A stretch of DNA of 62,772 bases from Chloroflexota bacterium. Lineage in GTDB: Bacteria > Chloroflexota > Anaerolineae > Anaerolineales > Anaerolineaceae. Positions 4,964-44,762 of the stretch are shown here, one piece after another (positions within the stretch are counted from its first letter, which is position 1; every line of letters starts with the position of its first letter). Both the position numbers and the translations under genes were made by a program. The DNA is taken from the NCBI GenBank assembly GCA_021789855.1, contig JAJYIW010000001.1, forward strand, positions 1 through 62,772. Reading direction: 5' to 3'. A model generated the notes under the pieces. That model saw only the letters and a program-made list of their open reading frames with translations, was not told where the DNA came from and did no database searches.

Positions 4964-5167
4964 GTATTGTTCAAGAGGTAACTGATGCTATGGGTTTCAG
5001 GCGTAAACAATAACAGGTATATGTAATTGGATCATCAATTCGATTCTATAGTAATTGCTAACAAAATCAATTAACAAAATTGAAAACTCTTATCCGAAAG
5101 TATCCCCCCATCTTCTTGTTATACGTTTGATATATACTTATTTCCATAAATTTAACCACTAATTGCA

Positions 5168-40424: not shown

Positions 40425-40916
40425 ATGTATGGTCAACAATTGTCGCAGCTTACCCTCTTTCACGATTTAACCGCTGAACAACTGGATTTGATCCAGTCTT
40501 TCGGGGAAGTTTGTGATTTTTCTAAGGGTATCATCATCTTCGACCAGGGAGATCAAGCCGAGCACCTGTATATCGTCATTCATGGTGAGGTCATCATCCG
40601 GTATAAGCCTTATGATGGGCCTGATATCACGGTGTCTCACATTGGCGAGGGAGGGGTGTTCGGCTGGTCGGCGGCTCTTGGGCGCACCATCTATACGTCT
40701 GCAGCCATGACCACCATGCCCAGTAAGTTTTATCGCTTCAAGTCGGAAAACTTACGCGAACTTTGCGAAAAGAGCCCAGAAACCGGCCATATCGTCCTGG
40801 ATCGCCTGGCCACTGCCATCGCTGAAAGGCTCCGGAGCACTCACAACCAGGTTCTGACCATATTGACACAAGCAGTGGGTTCTGAATTGGTTACCGAGGA
40901 GAATAAGAGTGAATAG
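40425..40916 (+). CDS. Stand-alone cyclic-nucleotide-binding domain protein (no HTH)
   Basis: 'LFHDLTAEQLDLI', 'IIFDQGDQAEHLYIVIHGEV', 'GEGGVFGWSAAL..RTIYTSAAM'. Only 163 aa. Confidence 0.8.
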   Translation: MYGQQLSQLTLFHDLTAEQLDLIQSFGEVCDFSKGIIIFDQGDQAEHLYIVIHGEVIIRYKPYDGPDITVSHIGEGGVFGWSAALGRTIYTSAAMTTMPSKFYRFKSENLRELCEKSPETGHIVLDRLATAIAERLRSTHNQVLTILTQAVGSELVTEENKSE

Positions 40917-41169
40917 CAGCGATAACAACCTGGCGAATTACACCACTGAAGATAAGCTCAATGCGCTTATCGAACAGCTGGATGCCTATATCACTCACTT
41001 TCATGGTGGGTCGGTCGAGCTCGTGTCCTTCGACGGTAAGCATCTCAAGATACACCTGGGCGGTGCATGCCTGGGTTGCCCGCTTTCCCCAGCAACCGTT
41101 CATGGATGGGTTGCTGGGACGGTAAAACAATTTTTCCCCGAAATCGAGTCGATCGAATCGGTTGACTGA
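40909..41169 (+). CDS. NifU C-terminal-domain-like Fe-S scaffold protein
   Basis: 'HGGSVELVSFDGKHLKIHLGGACLGCPLSPATV' (CxxC). GTG start with GAGGAG 8 nt upstream. It overlaps the upstream gene by 8 nt. Confidence 0.8.
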   Translation: MNSSDNNLANYTTEDKLNALIEQLDAYITHFHGGSVELVSFDGKHLKIHLGGACLGCPLSPATVHGWVAGTVKQFFPEIESIESVD

Positions 41170-41209
41170 TACACTCCCCAATAAGAACAGGTAGAACCGG
41201 CCGAGACAT

Positions 41210-42073
41210 TTATCGGCCGGTCTTCACGGTTGATGAGGGGATTTGATTAATTTCATTCCGAACGGTCTGATATAAATTCTCTGCTTTTAATTCGCTCAGG
41301 GTATAGCAGGGCGATTTTAAATGATCGGCCAGCGCCTGGGCCAGGCCCTGGTCAAACGCGGCATGTTCCATGTTGATCACGACGGAACGAATGCGATCAT
41401 CAGCAATCTCATCGGAGATTTGGTGGGCTTCTTCCTGTGGTGGCACGCGGGTGATAGCCACATTGCCGGCCCCATCCGTGAGGATGATTAACAGCGGCTC
41501 GACATCCGGGTGCAAGAGTCGCTCGCGCAGCAGGACTTCGTGAGCCATTTGCAAGCCGGCCGACAGCGGGGTTTTGCCCCCAACCGGAATATCGGCTAAG
41601 GCTTGCTGAGCCAGAAGCACCGAGTTGGTGGGCGGGAGTACCAGGGTGGCACGGTCTTTTTGAAAGACAATTAATCCCACCCGATCACGCCGCTGGTAGG
41701 CATCCGTTAATAAAGACAGGATAGCGCCTTTGGTAGCTGCCATGCGTTCAGCCACGGCCATGGACCAGGAAGCGTCAACCAGGAAAAGGATCAGGTTGGC
41801 AGAGCGACGCACGCGCACTTTCCGTTGAAAGTCGGCCGGCCGGATCGCAAAAGCAACCCGTTGGCGGAGCTCGGTTCTTTCCTTTTGGAAGGGAGCCGCC
41901 GCGCGCATCGTCGCATCAAAGGCCAGATCGTCCGCCTTGCCTGGAGTTGGCCGGGCCTGAATATAGCGGCCTCGTTTACGGTCGGTGTGAGAACGCGAGC
42001 GACGACCAGAATTGCGCCGCACCATTTTATCCAGAGGGGTATCCAGCCGGCGAGGCGTAAAGGATTCTCCCAC
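41210..42073 (-). CDS. chlD: ChlD/BchD/CobT-type vWA domain (C-terminal half of a chelatase medium subunit); the frame stays open upstream to 42220
   Basis: 'DLAFDATMRAAAPFQKER', 'LILFLVDASWSMAVAERMAATKGAILSLLTDAYQRRDRVGLIVF', 'LPPTNSV', 'GGKTPLSAGL', 'LIILTDGAGN'. The only in-frame start is GTG 42073, but the frame has no stop back to the A-run at 42194-42203 (see findings). Confidence 0.85.
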   Translation of the reverse strand: MGESFTPRRLDTPLDKMVRRNSGRRSRSHTDRKRGRYIQARPTPGKADDLAFDATMRAAAPFQKERTELRQRVAFAIRPADFQRKVRVRRSANLILFLVDASWSMAVAERMAATKGAILSLLTDAYQRRDRVGLIVFQKDRATLVLPPTNSVLLAQQALADIPVGGKTPLSAGLQMAHEVLLRERLLHPDVEPLLIILTDGAGNVAITRVPPQEEAHQISDEIADDRIRSVVINMEHAAFDQGLAQALADHLKSPCYTLSELKAENLYQTVRNEINQIPSSTVKTGR

Positions 42074-42186
42074 CTGGACCTTCCGCCCACCTTCCCACCA
42101 GCGTGCATTTTTATCATCAAAAACGCTCTGGGGGCTGGGCTCCGGGGTACCGGCGTCAGGGGGCCTGTCGCTCGGCTCAGACCCGT

Positions 42187-43290
42187 TCAGCTCTTTTTTT
42201 TTTGCCCGGCTGCCTCTTCCTCAGGTGCCTCTTCAACCGCCTCGGACTCCCCTGAGCTGACGGATTGCCCCTGAAGCTGGGCAATATGTTCTTGAAGTTG
42301 TTCAGTGGTGATCTCAGATTGCTGGAAGGGCCCGCGTTTAATCCGGTGGGGTAGCGCCAGCTCAGCCGCAAGGGCGATATCATGATCGGAAATCTTCACC
42401 CGGCCTTCAAAGGCCGCCTGGGCGCGCGCTGCCTTGAGAATCACCAGGTCAGCTCGATGCCCTTCCACATTGAGCGAAGCAGTCAGGTCAGCGATGACCA
42501 GTAAGTCCCGCCGGGTATAGCTGACTTTATCGACCAGCTGGCGGGCACGCTCAATCTGGCGGGATAACTCCTGTTCTTTTTGCGCCCAATCCTGGTAAAA
42601 CGCTTCTGGATCAGCCTCGAAGGCCAGGTTTCGCTCCATAATCAACACCCGCTGACGGGCATCATGCAATCCCCGGATGTCCACTGAGAGAGCAAAACGA
42701 TCCAACAATTGTGGGCGTAAATCCCCTTCCTCTGGATTCATCGTCCCAACCAGGATAAAACGCGCCGGGTGGGTGAATGAAATTCCTTCCCTTTCCACAA
42801 TGTTCATTCCCATCGCCGCTGAGTCAAGTAAGACATCCACGACATGGTCATCCAGGAGGTTGACCTCATCGATATACAGCAAGCCGCGGTTGGCCGCCGC
42901 CAGGACGCCGGGCTCAAAGTGGCGCTCCCCTTTCTGAATAGCCTTCTCAATATCCAGGGTGCCTACTACCCGATCTTCCGTCGCTGAGACAGGCAGGTTG
43001 ATAAAGGCCGTGGTGCGAGCCGTTACCGGCAAATCTTCGCCCCGACCATGGCGTTCCCGGCATTCCGTGCACCAGGTGTTGGGAGAATCGGGGTCACAAC
43101 CAAATCGGCAATCACTGACGACATTCACTTTAGGCAGCAAGGCCGCCAGGGCACGCGCAGCCGTCGACTTGGCCGTGCCGCGCTCACCTCGGATCAGCAC
43201 CCCGCCAATCCGGGCGTTGACCGCATTGAGTATGAGAGCGCGACACATGCGTTCCTGTCCAACTATAGCAGTGAAGGGAAAGATGTACAT
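42187..43290 (-). CDS. chlI: ChlI/BchI-type AAA+ chelatase ATPase subunit (zero-frame product)
   Basis: 'FPFTAIVGQERMCRALILNAVNARIGGVLIRGERGTAKST' (Walker A), 'LLYIDEVNLLDDHVVDVLLD' (Walker B), 'FILVGTMNPEEGDLRPQLLDRF'. The acidic tail is 'GESEAVEEAPEEEAAGQKKKS'. Confidence 0.9.
   Translation of the reverse strand: MYIFPFTAIVGQERMCRALILNAVNARIGGVLIRGERGTAKSTAARALAALLPKVNVVSDCRFGCDPDSPNTWCTECRERHGRGEDLPVTARTTAFINLPVSATEDRVVGTLDIEKAIQKGERHFEPGVLAAANRGLLYIDEVNLLDDHVVDVLLDSAAMGMNIVEREGISFTHPARFILVGTMNPEEGDLRPQLLDRFALSVDIRGLHDARQRVLIMERNLAFEADPEAFYQDWAQKEQELSRQIERARQLVDKVSYTRRDLLVIADLTASLNVEGHRADLVILKAARAQAAFEGRVKISDHDIALAAELALPHRIKRGPFQQSEITTEQLQEHIAQLQGQSVSSGESEAVEEAPEEEAAGQKKKS
42193..42199 (-). 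promoter_or_regulatory. Candidate -1 programmed ribosomal frameshift heptamer A_AAA_AAG
   Basis: The zero-frame reading is CAA AAA AAA AAG AGC TGA. The heptamer matches the dnaX-type X_XXY_YYZ pattern. A downstream 7-bp stem GGGUCUG/CAGGCCC (42184-42161) starts 8 nt after the heptamer. Confidence 0.6.
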
Positions 43291-43496
43291 GGAAATAAGT
43301 TTACCACTAGTAGAGTTGAGCGTAAATCCTTGTAGTTTCCACCGGACTCAGGATGTAGTTAACCTATTTTGATTGACCAGGCGCTATTCCCAATCCGCAG
43401 AAAAAGGTATTTTTAATCTTTTTATTAAGGGTTGCAAATAAGACGATTCCCTCTTATAATGTACCTTAAACCTTATATCCGGAGTACAAAAACAGT

Positions 43497-44762
43497 ATGG
43501 ATAATCAAGATACTCAACTCGAGCAGGGGGCGACGCCCGAGAATAATCAAACTGCTGAAAATCATAATATGGAATCTCTGCTGGAGCAAGAAGGGCTGGG
43601 GATTGATTTTCCGGCCCAGGGAGAGATCCGCACAGGCATGATCGCCAGTATCAGCGCAGGACAAATCCTGGTCAGTGTCGGCACAAAATCGGAAGGCGTC
43701 ATCACCGGGAAAGAATTAGAAGCGATACCTGCCGAAGAACTGGCTACCCTGCAAGTTGGGCAGGAGATACCTGTGTACGTGGTCAACCCGGAAGACCAGG
43801 GCGGCAACCTGGTGCTTTCGTATGTCCGCGCCCGTGAAGAAGTGAGCTGGCTCGATGCAGAGAAAATGATGACCTCGGCAGAAACCTTCCACGGCAATAT
43901 CATTGGATACAACAAGGGTGGGTTGATTGTCCCAATGGGCAGTCTCCGGGGTTTTGTCCCAGCATCGCAAATCAGCCTTTCTCGGCGCATCTCATTAAGC
44001 GGCGACACTCCAGAACAACGCTGGAGTAAAATGGTCGGCCAGCCGATCGATGTGCGCGTGATTGAAGTCGACCGCGAACGCCGGCGATTAATCCTCTCCG
44101 AAAGGGCTGCCAGCACCGAAACGCGCGAGACCCTTAAAGAACGCGTCATCGAGGAGCTTAAAGAAGGCGAAATTCGCACGGGGCGGGTAACCAGCCTGGC
44201 GGATTTTGGCGCATTCGTCAATATCAGCGGCGCCGATGGCCTGGTTCACCTTTCCGAAATATCGTGGGAACGTATCCAGCATCCTAACGAAGTGCTCAAG
44301 GTTGGACAGGAAGTCAAGGTTAAAGTCATCAGCATTGATCGGGAAAAGAAACGCATTGGCCTCTCCATCCGGCAGCTTTTAGAGGATCCCTGGGCGCAGC
44401 AGGTGGCGCATCTCCAGGTAGGCCAGCTGGTTGAAGGAAAAATCACCCGGTTAACCAAGTTCGGCGCGTTTGCCCGTCTTGAGGGCGATGTAGAAGGTCT
44501 CATCCATATCTCCGAGATCAGCGAAAAACGGATCGAGCACCCGAAAGAAGTTTTACACGAAGGGGATACCATCACCCTGCGCGTGATCAAGATCGATGCA
44601 GAAAATCATCGCATTGGCCTCAGCCTACGCCGGGTGGATTCACCGGCTTATGCCGACATGGACTGGAAAGCCCTGGCAGATGAAATGGGCACCACGCCCA
44701 CCCCCCCTGCCCCATCCACGCCTGAGGCTCCAGAAGCAAGCAACGACGATCCACAGGCTTAG
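43497..44762 (+). CDS. rpsA: 30S ribosomal protein S1 (four S1 domains)
   Basis: It has repeated S1 OB-fold signatures: 'GMIASIS..GQILVSVG.KSEGVI', 'FHGNIIGYNKGGLIVPMGSLRGFVPASQ', 'RTGRVTSLADFGAFVNISGADGLVHLSEIS', 'VEGKITRLTKFGAFARLEGDVEGLIHISEIS'. Confidence 0.9.
   Translation: MDNQDTQLEQGATPENNQTAENHNMESLLEQEGLGIDFPAQGEIRTGMIASISAGQILVSVGTKSEGVITGKELEAIPAEELATLQVGQEIPVYVVNPEDQGGNLVLSYVRAREEVSWLDAEKMMTSAETFHGNIIGYNKGGLIVPMGSLRGFVPASQISLSRRISLSGDTPEQRWSKMVGQPIDVRVIEVDRERRRLILSERAASTETRETLKERVIEELKEGEIRTGRVTSLADFGAFVNISGADGLVHLSEISWERIQHPNEVLKVGQEVKVKVISIDREKKRIGLSIRQLLEDPWAQQVAHLQVGQLVEGKITRLTKFGAFARLEGDVEGLIHISEISEKRIEHPKEVLHEGDTITLRVIKIDAENHRIGLSLRRVDSPAYADMDWKALADEMGTTPTPPAPSTPEAPEASNDDPQA

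Follow-up and report, generated by a model that had tools for sequence, protein, structure and literature searches.

An A10 run between ChlI-like and vWA reading frames very probably marks a single recoded chlD-type gene in an uncultured Anaerolineales bacterium

A 62,772-nt stretch of DNA from an uncultured Anaerolineales bacterium, which was analysed as a whole and is referred to here as the window, carries on its minus strand a ChlI/BchI-like AAA+ open reading frame (ORF1) and, overlapping its end in the −1 frame, a second ORF with a vWA domain. The question raised by this locus is whether the two ORFs are two genes or one gene whose frames are joined during expression and, if the latter, which machinery joins them. 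Public gene calls split the locus into two ORFs, with the start of ORF1 placed at Met15. The original prediction was that normal termination would yield a 367-aa I-type subunit, whereas a −1 shift on a slippery heptamer would yield a D-type subunit of about 693 aa. All of its sequence coordinates (the end of ORF1, the A10 run, the heptamer, the stops, and the open −1 frame) proved correct on re-check, and its core reading, in which termination yields the I-type product and a −1 shift on the A run yields the D-type product with AAA+, linker, and vWA, is supported by family matches and by conservation. The two ORFs are very probably one recoded chlD-type gene (fs-chlD) with a short and a long product. 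The features of the locus are collected in Table 1.

Table 1. Features of the recoded locus, in positions of the window.
Feature	Position	Strand	Remarks
ORF1, zero frame	42187..43290	−	367 aa, ChlI/BchI-like AAA+; predicted I-type subunit by normal termination
Walker A, GERGTAKS	43188-43165	−	ORF1
Walker B, LLYIDEVN	42882-42859	−	ORF1
TGA closing the −1 frame upstream	42221..42223	−	Bounds the 31-nt overlap 42220-42190
A10 homopolymer	42194..42203	−	Conserved candidate recoding element
Slippery heptamer A_AAA_AAG	42193..42199	−	Zero frame, one codon before the stop, inside A10
Zero-frame stop TGA	42187..42189	−	3 nt past the heptamer
−1-frame CDS after the predicted shift	41210..42193	−	327 codons + stop; Pro/acidic linker, conserved block, vWA
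Predicted irregular hairpin	42138..42184	−	Starts 8 nt past the heptamer; possible, unconserved stimulator
Conserved block QSVF..ARWWEGG..LDTPLDK	42130-42026	−	−1 frame; starts 5′ of GTG 42073
vWA domain of the D-type product	41291..41791	−	PF13519 and PF00092 matches, residues 501-667
MIDAS DxSxS (DASWS)	41776-41762	−	vWA domain

The 3′ end of ORF1 reads ...GCA GCC GGG CAA AAA AAA AAG AGC TGA. Since the TGA at 42223-42221 closes the −1 frame upstream, a shift must fall within the 31-nt overlap of the two frames (42220-42190). From 42220 onwards no stop interrupts the −1 frame, which continues across KKKELNGSEPSDRPPDAGTPEPSPQSVFDDKNARWWEGGRKVQ into the vWA/MIDAS ORF and ends at 41210. When the sequence is translated conceptually with a −1 shift at the heptamer, the product is 693 aa long and its junction reads AAGQKKK|ELNGSEPSDR. 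The frames therefore join in the 367-aa and 693-aa layout that had been predicted, and the joined protein matches NCBIfam TIGR02442 (putative cobaltochelatase) over its full length (positions 1-640 of 641, 780.8 bits, cutoff 779.45), a score that only just exceeds the family cutoff. The fused product also matches TIGR02031 BchD-ChlD (9e-129), and residues 4-326 of ORF1 match TIGR02030 BchI-ChlI (2.3e-124). Among structures in the PDB, ChlI (8osf and 6l8d) and BchI (1g8p) are matched by the N-terminal part with E values of 1e-91 to 1e-99, and the integrin-I domain of BchD (2x31_A) is matched by the C-terminal part (3e-18). The architecture is shared with the Mg-chelatase motor (1g8p, 2x31, 6l8d, and 8osf) and the CobN-ChlI-ChlD cobaltochelatase, in that a ChlI-type AAA+ module carries Walker A and Walker B motifs and the D subunit adds an acidic/Pro linker and a C-terminal integrin-I/vWA domain with the MIDAS motif DxSxS.

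In the proposed mechanism, most ribosomes would translate the ChlI-like AAA+ module and stop at the zero-frame TGA, so that the resulting I-type ATPase subunit would be 367 aa long. On the A10 run, a substantial fraction of translation events would move into −1; the likeliest route would be tandem slippage of two tRNA-Lys on A_AAA_AAG, and RNA polymerase may also play a part by adding one A to some of the transcripts. The shifted ribosomes would then proceed through the Pro/acidic linker into the vWA/MIDAS region and produce a 693-aa D-type subunit, whose N-terminal 366 residues would be shared with the I-type subunit. Both products are thus expected to be made, and they would assemble like the I and D rings of the Mg-chelatase and cobaltochelatase motors. 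The shift efficiency is probably tens of percent by analogy with chlD sites carrying A9-A11, since −1 shifting in E. coli reporters was 63%, 40%, and 10% for chlD sites with A11, A9, and A7, respectively (PMC3711429).

Taken by itself, the A10 run with its heptamer is within chance. No other homopolymer in the window reaches 9 (the next longest is 8), but one A10 compares with 0.35 expected, and 21 of 100 shuffles hold at least one; likewise, AAAAAAG occurs 22 times against 12 expected. The significance of the motif rests instead on its position, on its conservation across species, and on the repetition of A10 in other assemblies. The run falls exactly where two ORFs, which jointly form a full-length TIGR02442 protein, overlap by 31 nt, and A10 is also found in three further assemblies, which are 99.8% identical, come from other sequencing runs, and differ by 5-15 SNPs each.

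For conservation, 80 orthologous loci with 75-84% amino acid identity were compared, each from a different Anaerolineales/Chloroflexota species, which make 81 loci with the window; these orthologues include loci that bear the labels Anaerolinea, Levilinea, Longilinea, and Leptolinea. The −1 layout is kept in 75 of the 80 orthologues, and three of the five exceptions retain the −1 relation at the run and carry a second indel. Without exception, the 76 loci that keep the −1 layout, the window among them, contain an in-frame X_XXY_YYZ heptamer inside the overlap, so that the heptamer and the two-frame layout, whose comparison across orthologues had been proposed as a check, are both kept in 76 of 81 loci. 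The lengths of the A run in these 76 loci are 9 (42 loci), 10 (27), 7 (4), 8 (1), 14 (1), and 5 (1); a run of A9, A10, or A14 stands just before the zero-frame stop in 70, and the stop lies 0-3 nt past the heptamer in 60. Elsewhere in these genes, Lys codons are mixed (58% AAA, 42% AAG) and no A run exceeds 7, which indicates that the A homopolymer is selected at the nucleotide level. This is in agreement with the purifying selection described for A_AAA_AAR (Atkins et al. 2016, PMC5009743). Judged from these alignments, the predicted recoding site is fixed within the order Anaerolineales.

The recoding is that of the published fs-chlD and is already known, including for Anaerolineaceae. The work of Antonov on chlD frameshifting was cited correctly in the original prediction, and the lineage is covered as well: fs-chlD is listed for Anaerolinea, Levilinea, Longilinea, Ornatilinea, and Brevefilum (Kuznetsov, Milenkin, Antonov 2022, PMC9227772). 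It corresponds to the 'magnesium chelatase' cluster of programmed −1 frameshifts (Antonov et al. 2013 NAR, PMC3711429), and it is also published in Antonov 2020 MBE (doi 10.1093/molbev/msaa081) and Atkins et al. 2016 (PMC5009743). For cobalamin producers, an enrichment of genomes without a separate small-subunit gene is reported (Antonov 2013/2020). In the published fs-chlD genes, as in the present locus, a ChlI-like ORF of ~1 kb precedes a vWA ORF that is read in the −1 frame. Their overlap contains A_AAA_AAR as part of a poly-A stretch of 7-11 nt, the counterpart in the window being A_AAA_AAG in A10. Their fusion product is homologous to full-length ChlD, and the production of small and medium subunits from one gene has been proposed for them, as it is here. 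Nothing essential differs from the published cases, although those papers do not name the present uncultured species. The survey of 80 species adds that A9-A10 is the norm for the candidate site in the order and that none of the putative stimulators is conserved.

Other explanations of the split have to be weighed against recoding. Homopolymers are prone to sequencing error, so a true A11 with an uninterrupted chlD could have been miscalled, or the locus could be a frameshifted pseudogene, and extra indels are indeed seen among the orthologues in several nanopore-derived MAGs (L008, L013, L037, and L039). Against such an artefact or decay, A10 is read in the window and in the three other assemblies alike, and the −1 layout recurs in 75 of 80 other species from many groups and many technologies. 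Furthermore, both halves of the orthologues keep 67-84% protein identity, their Walker and MIDAS motifs being intact, and this explanation appears extremely improbable. The A10 run could instead be a contingency tract at the DNA level, at which replication slippage would toggle heritably between an I-only (A10) and a D-only (A11) state, given that poly-A tracts of such length are slippery for DNA polymerase too (PMC3711429). However, the 81 loci include no assembly that is in frame at the run; L013, the one locus with a continuous ORF, owes its frame to a different indel 45 nt upstream. In a D-only state, the I subunit would have to come from a second chlI, of which there is none in the window, and phase variation is atypical for cytoplasmic metabolic complexes, so a contingency tract is to be regarded as highly improbable.

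The gene calls suggest a further possibility, namely two separate genes without recoding, a chlI followed by a vWA gene with its own or a coupled start at or near GTG 42073. The ORF listing contains a 287-aa ORF from this GTG, public gene callers annotate the locus likewise, and separate chlI and chlD genes are common among organisms (PMC9227772); in addition, one orthologue (L075) shows an ATGA stop/start overlap without a long A run. The conservation of the −1 frame (Q.VF....A.WW.GG.KV), however, begins 19 codons upstream of the GTG, and the GTG position itself is variable, being occupied by A, I, T, P, or N codons in other loci. No ATG, GTG, or TTG occurs between the opening of the −1 frame and the conserved block in 42 of 68 scored loci, the window included, and in every case an open −1 frame extends back across the A run. 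Two genes would also leave the selection for an A9-A10 run unexplained, and we consider this arrangement very unlikely. It had been claimed that the vWA ORF has no evident RBS before its GTG; this is so, but it counts for little as evidence, since ORF1 is likewise without an obvious SD. Collectively, the conserved −1 layout and run, the repeated A10, and the conserved peptide upstream of usable starts led us to exclude sequencing error, a pseudogene, and a separate gene.

With recoding as the preferred reading, the question becomes whether the frame is changed by the ribosome or by RNA polymerase. The conserved element is a long A homopolymer, and slippage of RNA polymerase is therefore an alternative that was missed in the original prediction. 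Stutter of the polymerase on the T10 template would generate a subpopulation of A11 mRNA, in which AAA+ and vWA stand in one frame and are decoded normally. Transcriptional slippage on A9/T9 or longer runs is known from Thermus thermophilus dnaX, IS elements, and Shigella mxiE (PMC3711429, PMC5009743), the A9 of T. thermophilus dnaX being an established site (PMC3711429), and the A9-A10 at the present frame junction is similarly conserved as a run. The runs of 9-10 A in 69 of 76 loci, together with the one A14, exceed the 7 nt needed by a ribosomal site, and no SD-like or hairpin stimulator is conserved among the orthologues. One locus with A14 and the −1 layout (L040) and its sister with A10 and a +1 layout (L043) would both be workable with the ladder of run lengths made by a polymerase. 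The excess length, the A14, and the +1-layout sister fit slippage by RNA polymerase at least as well as slippage by the ribosome, and the rise of shift efficiency with run length in the E. coli reporters is compatible with both mechanisms (PMC3711429).

Several observations point in the other direction. Four A7 runs and one C_CCA_AAA site stand in the exact register that is required for ribosomal slippage: the L025 and L064/L067/L073 lineages have A7 only, in register for A_AAA_AAA, and L075 has C_CCA_AAA without a long run. In this respect the few orthologues concerned are unlike the sites of the T. thermophilus dnaX, IS-element, and mxiE type. The −1 layout at the run is kept in all but two loci, the length of the run being altered by substitutions at its ends rather than by indels, and published descriptions class the site as ribosomal (PMC5009743, PMC9227772). 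On balance, we infer that the dominant mechanism is somewhat better than an even bet to be ribosomal, and that transcriptional slippage as the main route is possible but rather unlikely. The predicted junction peptide, QKKKELNG, is the same under ribosomal and transcriptional slippage; since both routes give AAGQKKKELNGSEPSDR, this peptide cannot separate the mechanisms.

The site had been described as dnaX-style, which holds for the heptamer. The A_AAA_AAG sequence is identical to that of E. coli dnaX, where it is decoded by tRNA-Lys, and two AAA+ products with a common N-terminus acting in one complex, as in tau and gamma, are likewise proposed here. The likeness in the window extends to a GAGG 12 nt upstream of the heptamer and a predicted hairpin 8 nt downstream. 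The comparison does not hold for the topology of the products and the conservation of stimulators. The shift in E. coli dnaX leads to a near-immediate stop and a short product, whereas 327 codons more would be read here and the shifted product would be the long one; such a topology, in which shifted ribosomes make the long product and unshifted ribosomes terminate, is of the gag-pol or IS-transposase type. Moreover, the SD-like and stem-loop stimulators of E. coli dnaX are conserved and essential, whereas neither is conserved in the chlD loci.

The upstream GAGG-rich stretch proposed as a stimulator was rejected, given that GGAG or GAGG is located 5-14 nt upstream in just 11 of 76 loci (the background of SD-like motifs elsewhere in ORF1 is 4%) and that the motif is accounted for by the Glu-rich linker. 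As for a proposed 7-bp stem, the complementary 7-mers GGGUCUG (42184-42178) and CAGGCCC (42167-42161) are present 8 nt past the heptamer, but the stem, at −11.6 kcal/mol when taken alone, has a predicted pair probability of 0.002 in its context and was discarded as a likely stimulator. The longer irregular hairpin listed in Table 1, which shares its first base with this stem, is predicted in its place; the region folds (63 nt) with −26.3 kcal/mol and a z of −2.78, or with −22.9 kcal/mol when the first 8 nt are left out. Across the orthologues, downstream folding has a mean z of −0.77 with 18-20% of values below −2, compared with +0.25 to −0.70 for the controls, one of which is similar, and a search by folding revealed no common downstream RNA structure among them.

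The genomic context bears on the biochemical role of the pair. No cobN/chlH and no second chlI/chlD was found in the 62.8-kb window by tblastn and by Pfam on ten larger ORFs, the longest ORF of the window being at most 865 aa, and no large chelatase subunit or tetrapyrrole gene is recurrent within ±4 kb of the orthologues. A search of the whole window against Rfam at the gathering threshold gave 0 matches, and a search of the 5′ region with E up to 1 gave two chance-level matches, SAM-II (17.7 bits, cutoff 44) and an lncRNA fragment; with no real match in Rfam, there is no cobalamin riboswitch. The cobalamin context that had been suggested was therefore not borne out, as cobN/chlH is missing from the window and a B12 riboswitch from the upstream region. 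In the literature, such pathways are reported as absent from the named Anaerolineaceae and Brevefilum species. Unlike the Mg-chelatase and cobaltochelatase systems, the window has no ChlH, CobN, tetrapyrrole gene, or B12 riboswitch, and neither ChlH, CobN, nor a tetrapyrrole gene recurs in the orthologous flanks. Because no cobN, chlH, or tetrapyrrole gene lies near the locus, the chelatase role of the pair is putative. Brevefilum fermentans has been reported to be without chlorophyll and B12 pathways and without the large subunit, the named Anaerolineaceae species have been placed just past the stage of B. fermentans, and some Anaerolineaceae carry a separate chlI (PMC9227772).

A more speculative idea, which we regard as doubtful, is that RNA-polymerase slippage mainly makes the I/D split in Anaerolineales and that the pair is a motor without ChlH/CobN, serving a non-chelatase function. 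Both parts of this idea, the polymerase slippage and the pair without ChlH/CobN, have already been raised as questions (PMC3711429, PMC9227772). If it were true, an AAA+/vWA motor would be active in organisms without chlorophyll and aerobic B12 pathways. The lineage is a candidate for studying a ChlI/ChlD-type pair without an evident large subunit, a question that is already in print and to which the window alone adds nothing. The value of the present analysis is mostly practical, in that two ORFs are to be annotated as one recoded gene, and the 80-species set provides clean data for asking whether long A runs act via the ribosome or via RNA polymerase.

A promoter and terminator scan of 40800-43600 gave no candidate above shuffle expectation and none on the minus strand between the two ORFs. 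The sole recurring neighbour of the orthologues is a divergent S1-domain gene, which is found at 36 of 80 loci; many other recurring 'ORFs' in the flanks are antisense artefacts.

The two chelatase-like reading frames of the locus are very probably connected by programmed -1 recoding at the A10 run that precedes the stop codon of ORF1, the ChlI-like AAA+ frame. Re-examination of the sequence showed that the original prediction was correct in all its statements on the ORFs, the A run, the heptamer, and the stops. When translated conceptually with a -1 shift at the heptamer, the two frames yield a 693-aa fusion whose junction reads AAGQKKK|ELNGSEPSDR. The A10 run is the sole homopolymer of at least 9 nt within the window, against a shuffle expectation of 0.35 A10 runs. 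Counting both strands, the window contains 22 copies of AAAAAAG versus 12.0 ± 3.0 in dinucleotide-preserving shuffles, none of which reaches 22. The A10/heptamer motif by itself is not beyond chance, and its significance is due to its location and conservation.

Coordinates of the features of the recoding locus and of its surroundings in the window
Feature	Position	Strand	Remark
ORF1, 367 aa	43290..42187	minus	3' end CAA AAA AAA AAG AGC TGA
A10 run	42203-42194	minus
A_AAA_AAG heptamer	42199-42193	minus	zero frame, one codon ahead of stop
TGA closing -1 frame	42223-42221	minus	-1 frame open from there to 41210
Four-cysteine insertion CRFGC...CTEC	43110-43060	minus	ORF1 residues 61-77
NifU-like ORF, 86 aa	40909-41169	plus	convergent to chlD 3' end
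cNMP-binding-domain gene	40425-40916	plus	directly precedes NifU-like ORF
ORF with family-B DNA polymerase domain, 816 aa	29467-31917	minus	PF00136, 1.5e-29
GH94 gene, 865 aa	24443-27040	plus	cellobiose/chitobiose-phosphorylase type
GH94 gene, 841 aa	26950-29475	plus	cellobiose/chitobiose-phosphorylase type

An orthologue scan with one genome per species yielded 80 loci, all from Anaerolineales or Chloroflexota MAGs, with 75-84% identity to ORF1. In 75 of the 80 orthologues the vWA part is offset by -1 from the reading frame of the AAA+ part; with the window, this makes 76 loci. In these, the A run ahead of the zero-frame stop is mostly A9 (42 loci) or A10 (27), and more rarely A7 (4), A8 (1), or A14 (1); L075 carries C_CCA_AAA in its place. 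All 76 have an in-frame X_XXY_YYZ heptamer within the overlap (A_AAA_AAA in 39, A_AAA_AAG in 31, and A_AAA_AAC in 4), and the zero-frame stop follows 0-3 nt behind it in 60. The linker codons flanking the run are otherwise highly variable. Outside the run, lysine codons in these genes are 58% AAA and 42% AAG, AAA-AAA accounts for just 22 of 95 Lys-Lys pairs, and no A run is longer than 7 nt, indicating that the homopolymer is selected as a nucleotide sequence.

Independent or coupled initiation of the vWA part was also considered. The aligned orthologue peptides share a conserved -1-frame block, Q.VF....A.WW.GG.KVK.GE.F.PR.LDTPLDK, that begins 19 codons upstream of the window GTG at 42073, and other species have codons for A, I, T, P, or N at the position of this GTG. 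No ATG, GTG, or TTG lies between the -1-frame opening and the block in 42 of the 68 scored loci, the window among them, and, traced backwards, the -1 frame never meets a stop before it has passed the A run. Identical A10 and flanks are found in three further public assemblies (Logan SRR13170410, Logan SRR13170412, and ENA ERZ27233560), which have 99.78-99.85% identity to the window and 5-15 SNPs each. For the window, the A10 of these assemblies, the orthologue conservation, and the -1-frame peptide evidence collectively exclude a sequencing error, a pseudogene, and separate or coupled initiation.

Some loci depart from this pattern. L008 and L037 show the usual -1 layout at the run and a second indel further downstream, and L013 (A9) combines the usual layout with a compensating indel ~45 nt upstream of the run. 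This upstream indel restores the frame to one continuous 687-aa ORF (L013 3991-6052), which may stem from a sequencing error or be a genuine fusion that yields the D-type product only. A +1 layout is found in L039 (A9) and L043 (A10). Four of the five exceptions are 'MFD' MAGs, which are taken to be long-read assemblies; L043 is not. The sister of L043 is L040 (A14, -1 layout), with both runs at about 5070-5095; either the homopolymer is misassembled here, or the pair hints that polymerase stuttering reads through the run length. In L075 (5032-5096) a long A run is missing; its heptamer, C_CCA_AAA, is in register, and the stop and start codons overlap as ATGA. This locus may represent a lineage with a changed strategy, whose vWA part may be expressed via translational coupling or a purely ribosomal shift.

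Anatomy and conservation support the core of the original prediction, in which termination at the zero-frame stop would yield the short I-type product and a -1 shift the D-type fusion, with the first 366 residues in common. The description of the site as dnaX-style holds for the heptamer and fails for the topology, as the shift yields the short product in dnaX, whereas it yields the long product here. The shift could occur by tandem tRNA-Lys slippage on A_AAA_AAG or, alternatively, RNA polymerase could add one extra A to the run, since CAA AAA AAA AAA GAG likewise reads QKKKE; both routes give the same proteins and the same junction peptide. Slippage of the polymerase instead of the ribosome is favored by A9-A10 as the norm, which is more than a ribosomal site requires, by the A14 locus with its sister in another frame, and by the absence of stimulator conservation. 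However, the A7 runs of two independent lineages and C_CCA_AAA keep the exact register that ribosomal slippage requires, the -1 layout is retained almost without exception, and run-length variation arises through substitution at the run ends. We lean moderately toward slippage that is mainly ribosomal, with transcription probably contributing.

The 7-bp stem proposed as a stimulator has -11.6 kcal/mol when folded alone, but its pair probability within 63 nt is 0.002; a longer irregular hairpin (42184-42138) with the same first base, 8 nt behind the heptamer, is predicted instead. The 63-nt fold has -26.3 kcal/mol (z -2.78), and -22.9 kcal/mol without the first 8 nt. Among the orthologues, the 55 nt behind the run have a mean z of -0.77, with 18-20% below -2, compared to +0.25 to -0.70 for six control windows taken from these genes, suggesting at most a weak, non-conserved tendency for downstream folding. 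The suggested upstream GAGG element fared no better: of the 76 loci, 11 have GGAG or GAGG 5-14 nt upstream, versus 4% of control windows, which is explained by the Glu-rich linker.

The fusion covers positions 1-640 of 641 of NCBIfam TIGR02442, 'putative cobaltochelatase', with 780.8 bits (curated cutoff, 779.45 bits), and also matches TIGR02031 BchD-ChlD (9e-129), while its first 326 residues match TIGR02030 BchI-ChlI (2e-124). Pfam assigns Mg_chelatase, AAA_5, and AAA_lid_2 to the AAA+ part and VWA_2 and VWA to the vWA part. Solved structures matching the fusion include ChlI and BchI (8osf, 6l8d, and 1g8p; E 1e-91 to 1e-99) for residues 3-328 and the BchD integrin-I domain 2x31_A (3e-18) for residues 497-630. 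Walker A (GERGTAKS), Walker B (LLYIDEVN), and the MIDAS motif DxSxS (DASWS) are intact. The Walker A motif has Ala in place of the usual Gly, as in MCM proteins, and the AAA+ module carries a four-cysteine insertion; orthologue L013 shares both features. Public databases annotate the locus incorrectly. Gene calls on two loci (L082 1826-2887 and L083 1203-2264, equivalent to ORF1 of the window) start at Met15, giving 353 aa and removing the conserved N-terminus FPFTAIVGQ, and present the vWA part as its own 287-aa gene.

Small and medium subunits were reportedly proposed to derive from one chlD gene by Antonov in 2020 (MBE 37:2268). A 'magnesium chelatase' cluster of -1 frameshifted genes from Pseudomonas, Burkholderia, Delftia, Herpetosiphon, Methanocaldococcus, and Methanococcus was described by Antonov, Coakley, Atkins, Baranov, and Borodovsky in 2013, with reporter efficiencies of 63% for A11, 40% for A9, and 10% for A7 (PMC3711429), and strong purifying selection on A_AAA_AAR in these genes was noted by Atkins et al. 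in 2016 (PMC5009743). The carriers listed by Kuznetsov et al. in 2022 include Anaerolinea thermophila, Ornatilinea apprima, Longilinea arvoryzae, Levilinea saccharolytica, and Brevefilum fermentans (PMC9227772), and our orthologues include loci labelled Anaerolinea, Levilinea, Longilinea, and Leptolinea. The finding is a correct rediscovery of an already known recoding event in a published lineage.

The proposed link to cobalamin is unsupported for this lineage by searches of the window and the orthologue flanks. No second ChlI-like sequence and no cobalamin riboswitch were found in the 62.8-kb window, where no ORF exceeds 865 aa; a Pfam scan of ten larger ORFs revealed no domain of the CobN or ChlH type, and none of the nine ORFs flanking the locus is linked to tetrapyrrole synthesis. 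Across the orthologues just one neighbor recurs, a divergent S1-domain gene found in 36 of 80 loci. According to Kuznetsov et al., Brevefilum fermentans carries fs-chlD, the published recoded gene, but has neither the chlorophyll nor the B12 pathway and no large subunit; the named Anaerolineaceae species were placed just after its stage, and the function of the I and D pair was called unknown (PMC9227772). The NifU-like/cNMP-binding pair next to the window locus adjoins fs-chlD in just 4-5 of the 80 orthologous loci. A family-B polymerase is an unusual find on a Chloroflexota chromosome; this one might belong to a mobile element or be a Pol II-type repair polymerase. The mechanically called ORFs of the tandem GH94 genes overlap by ~90 nt.
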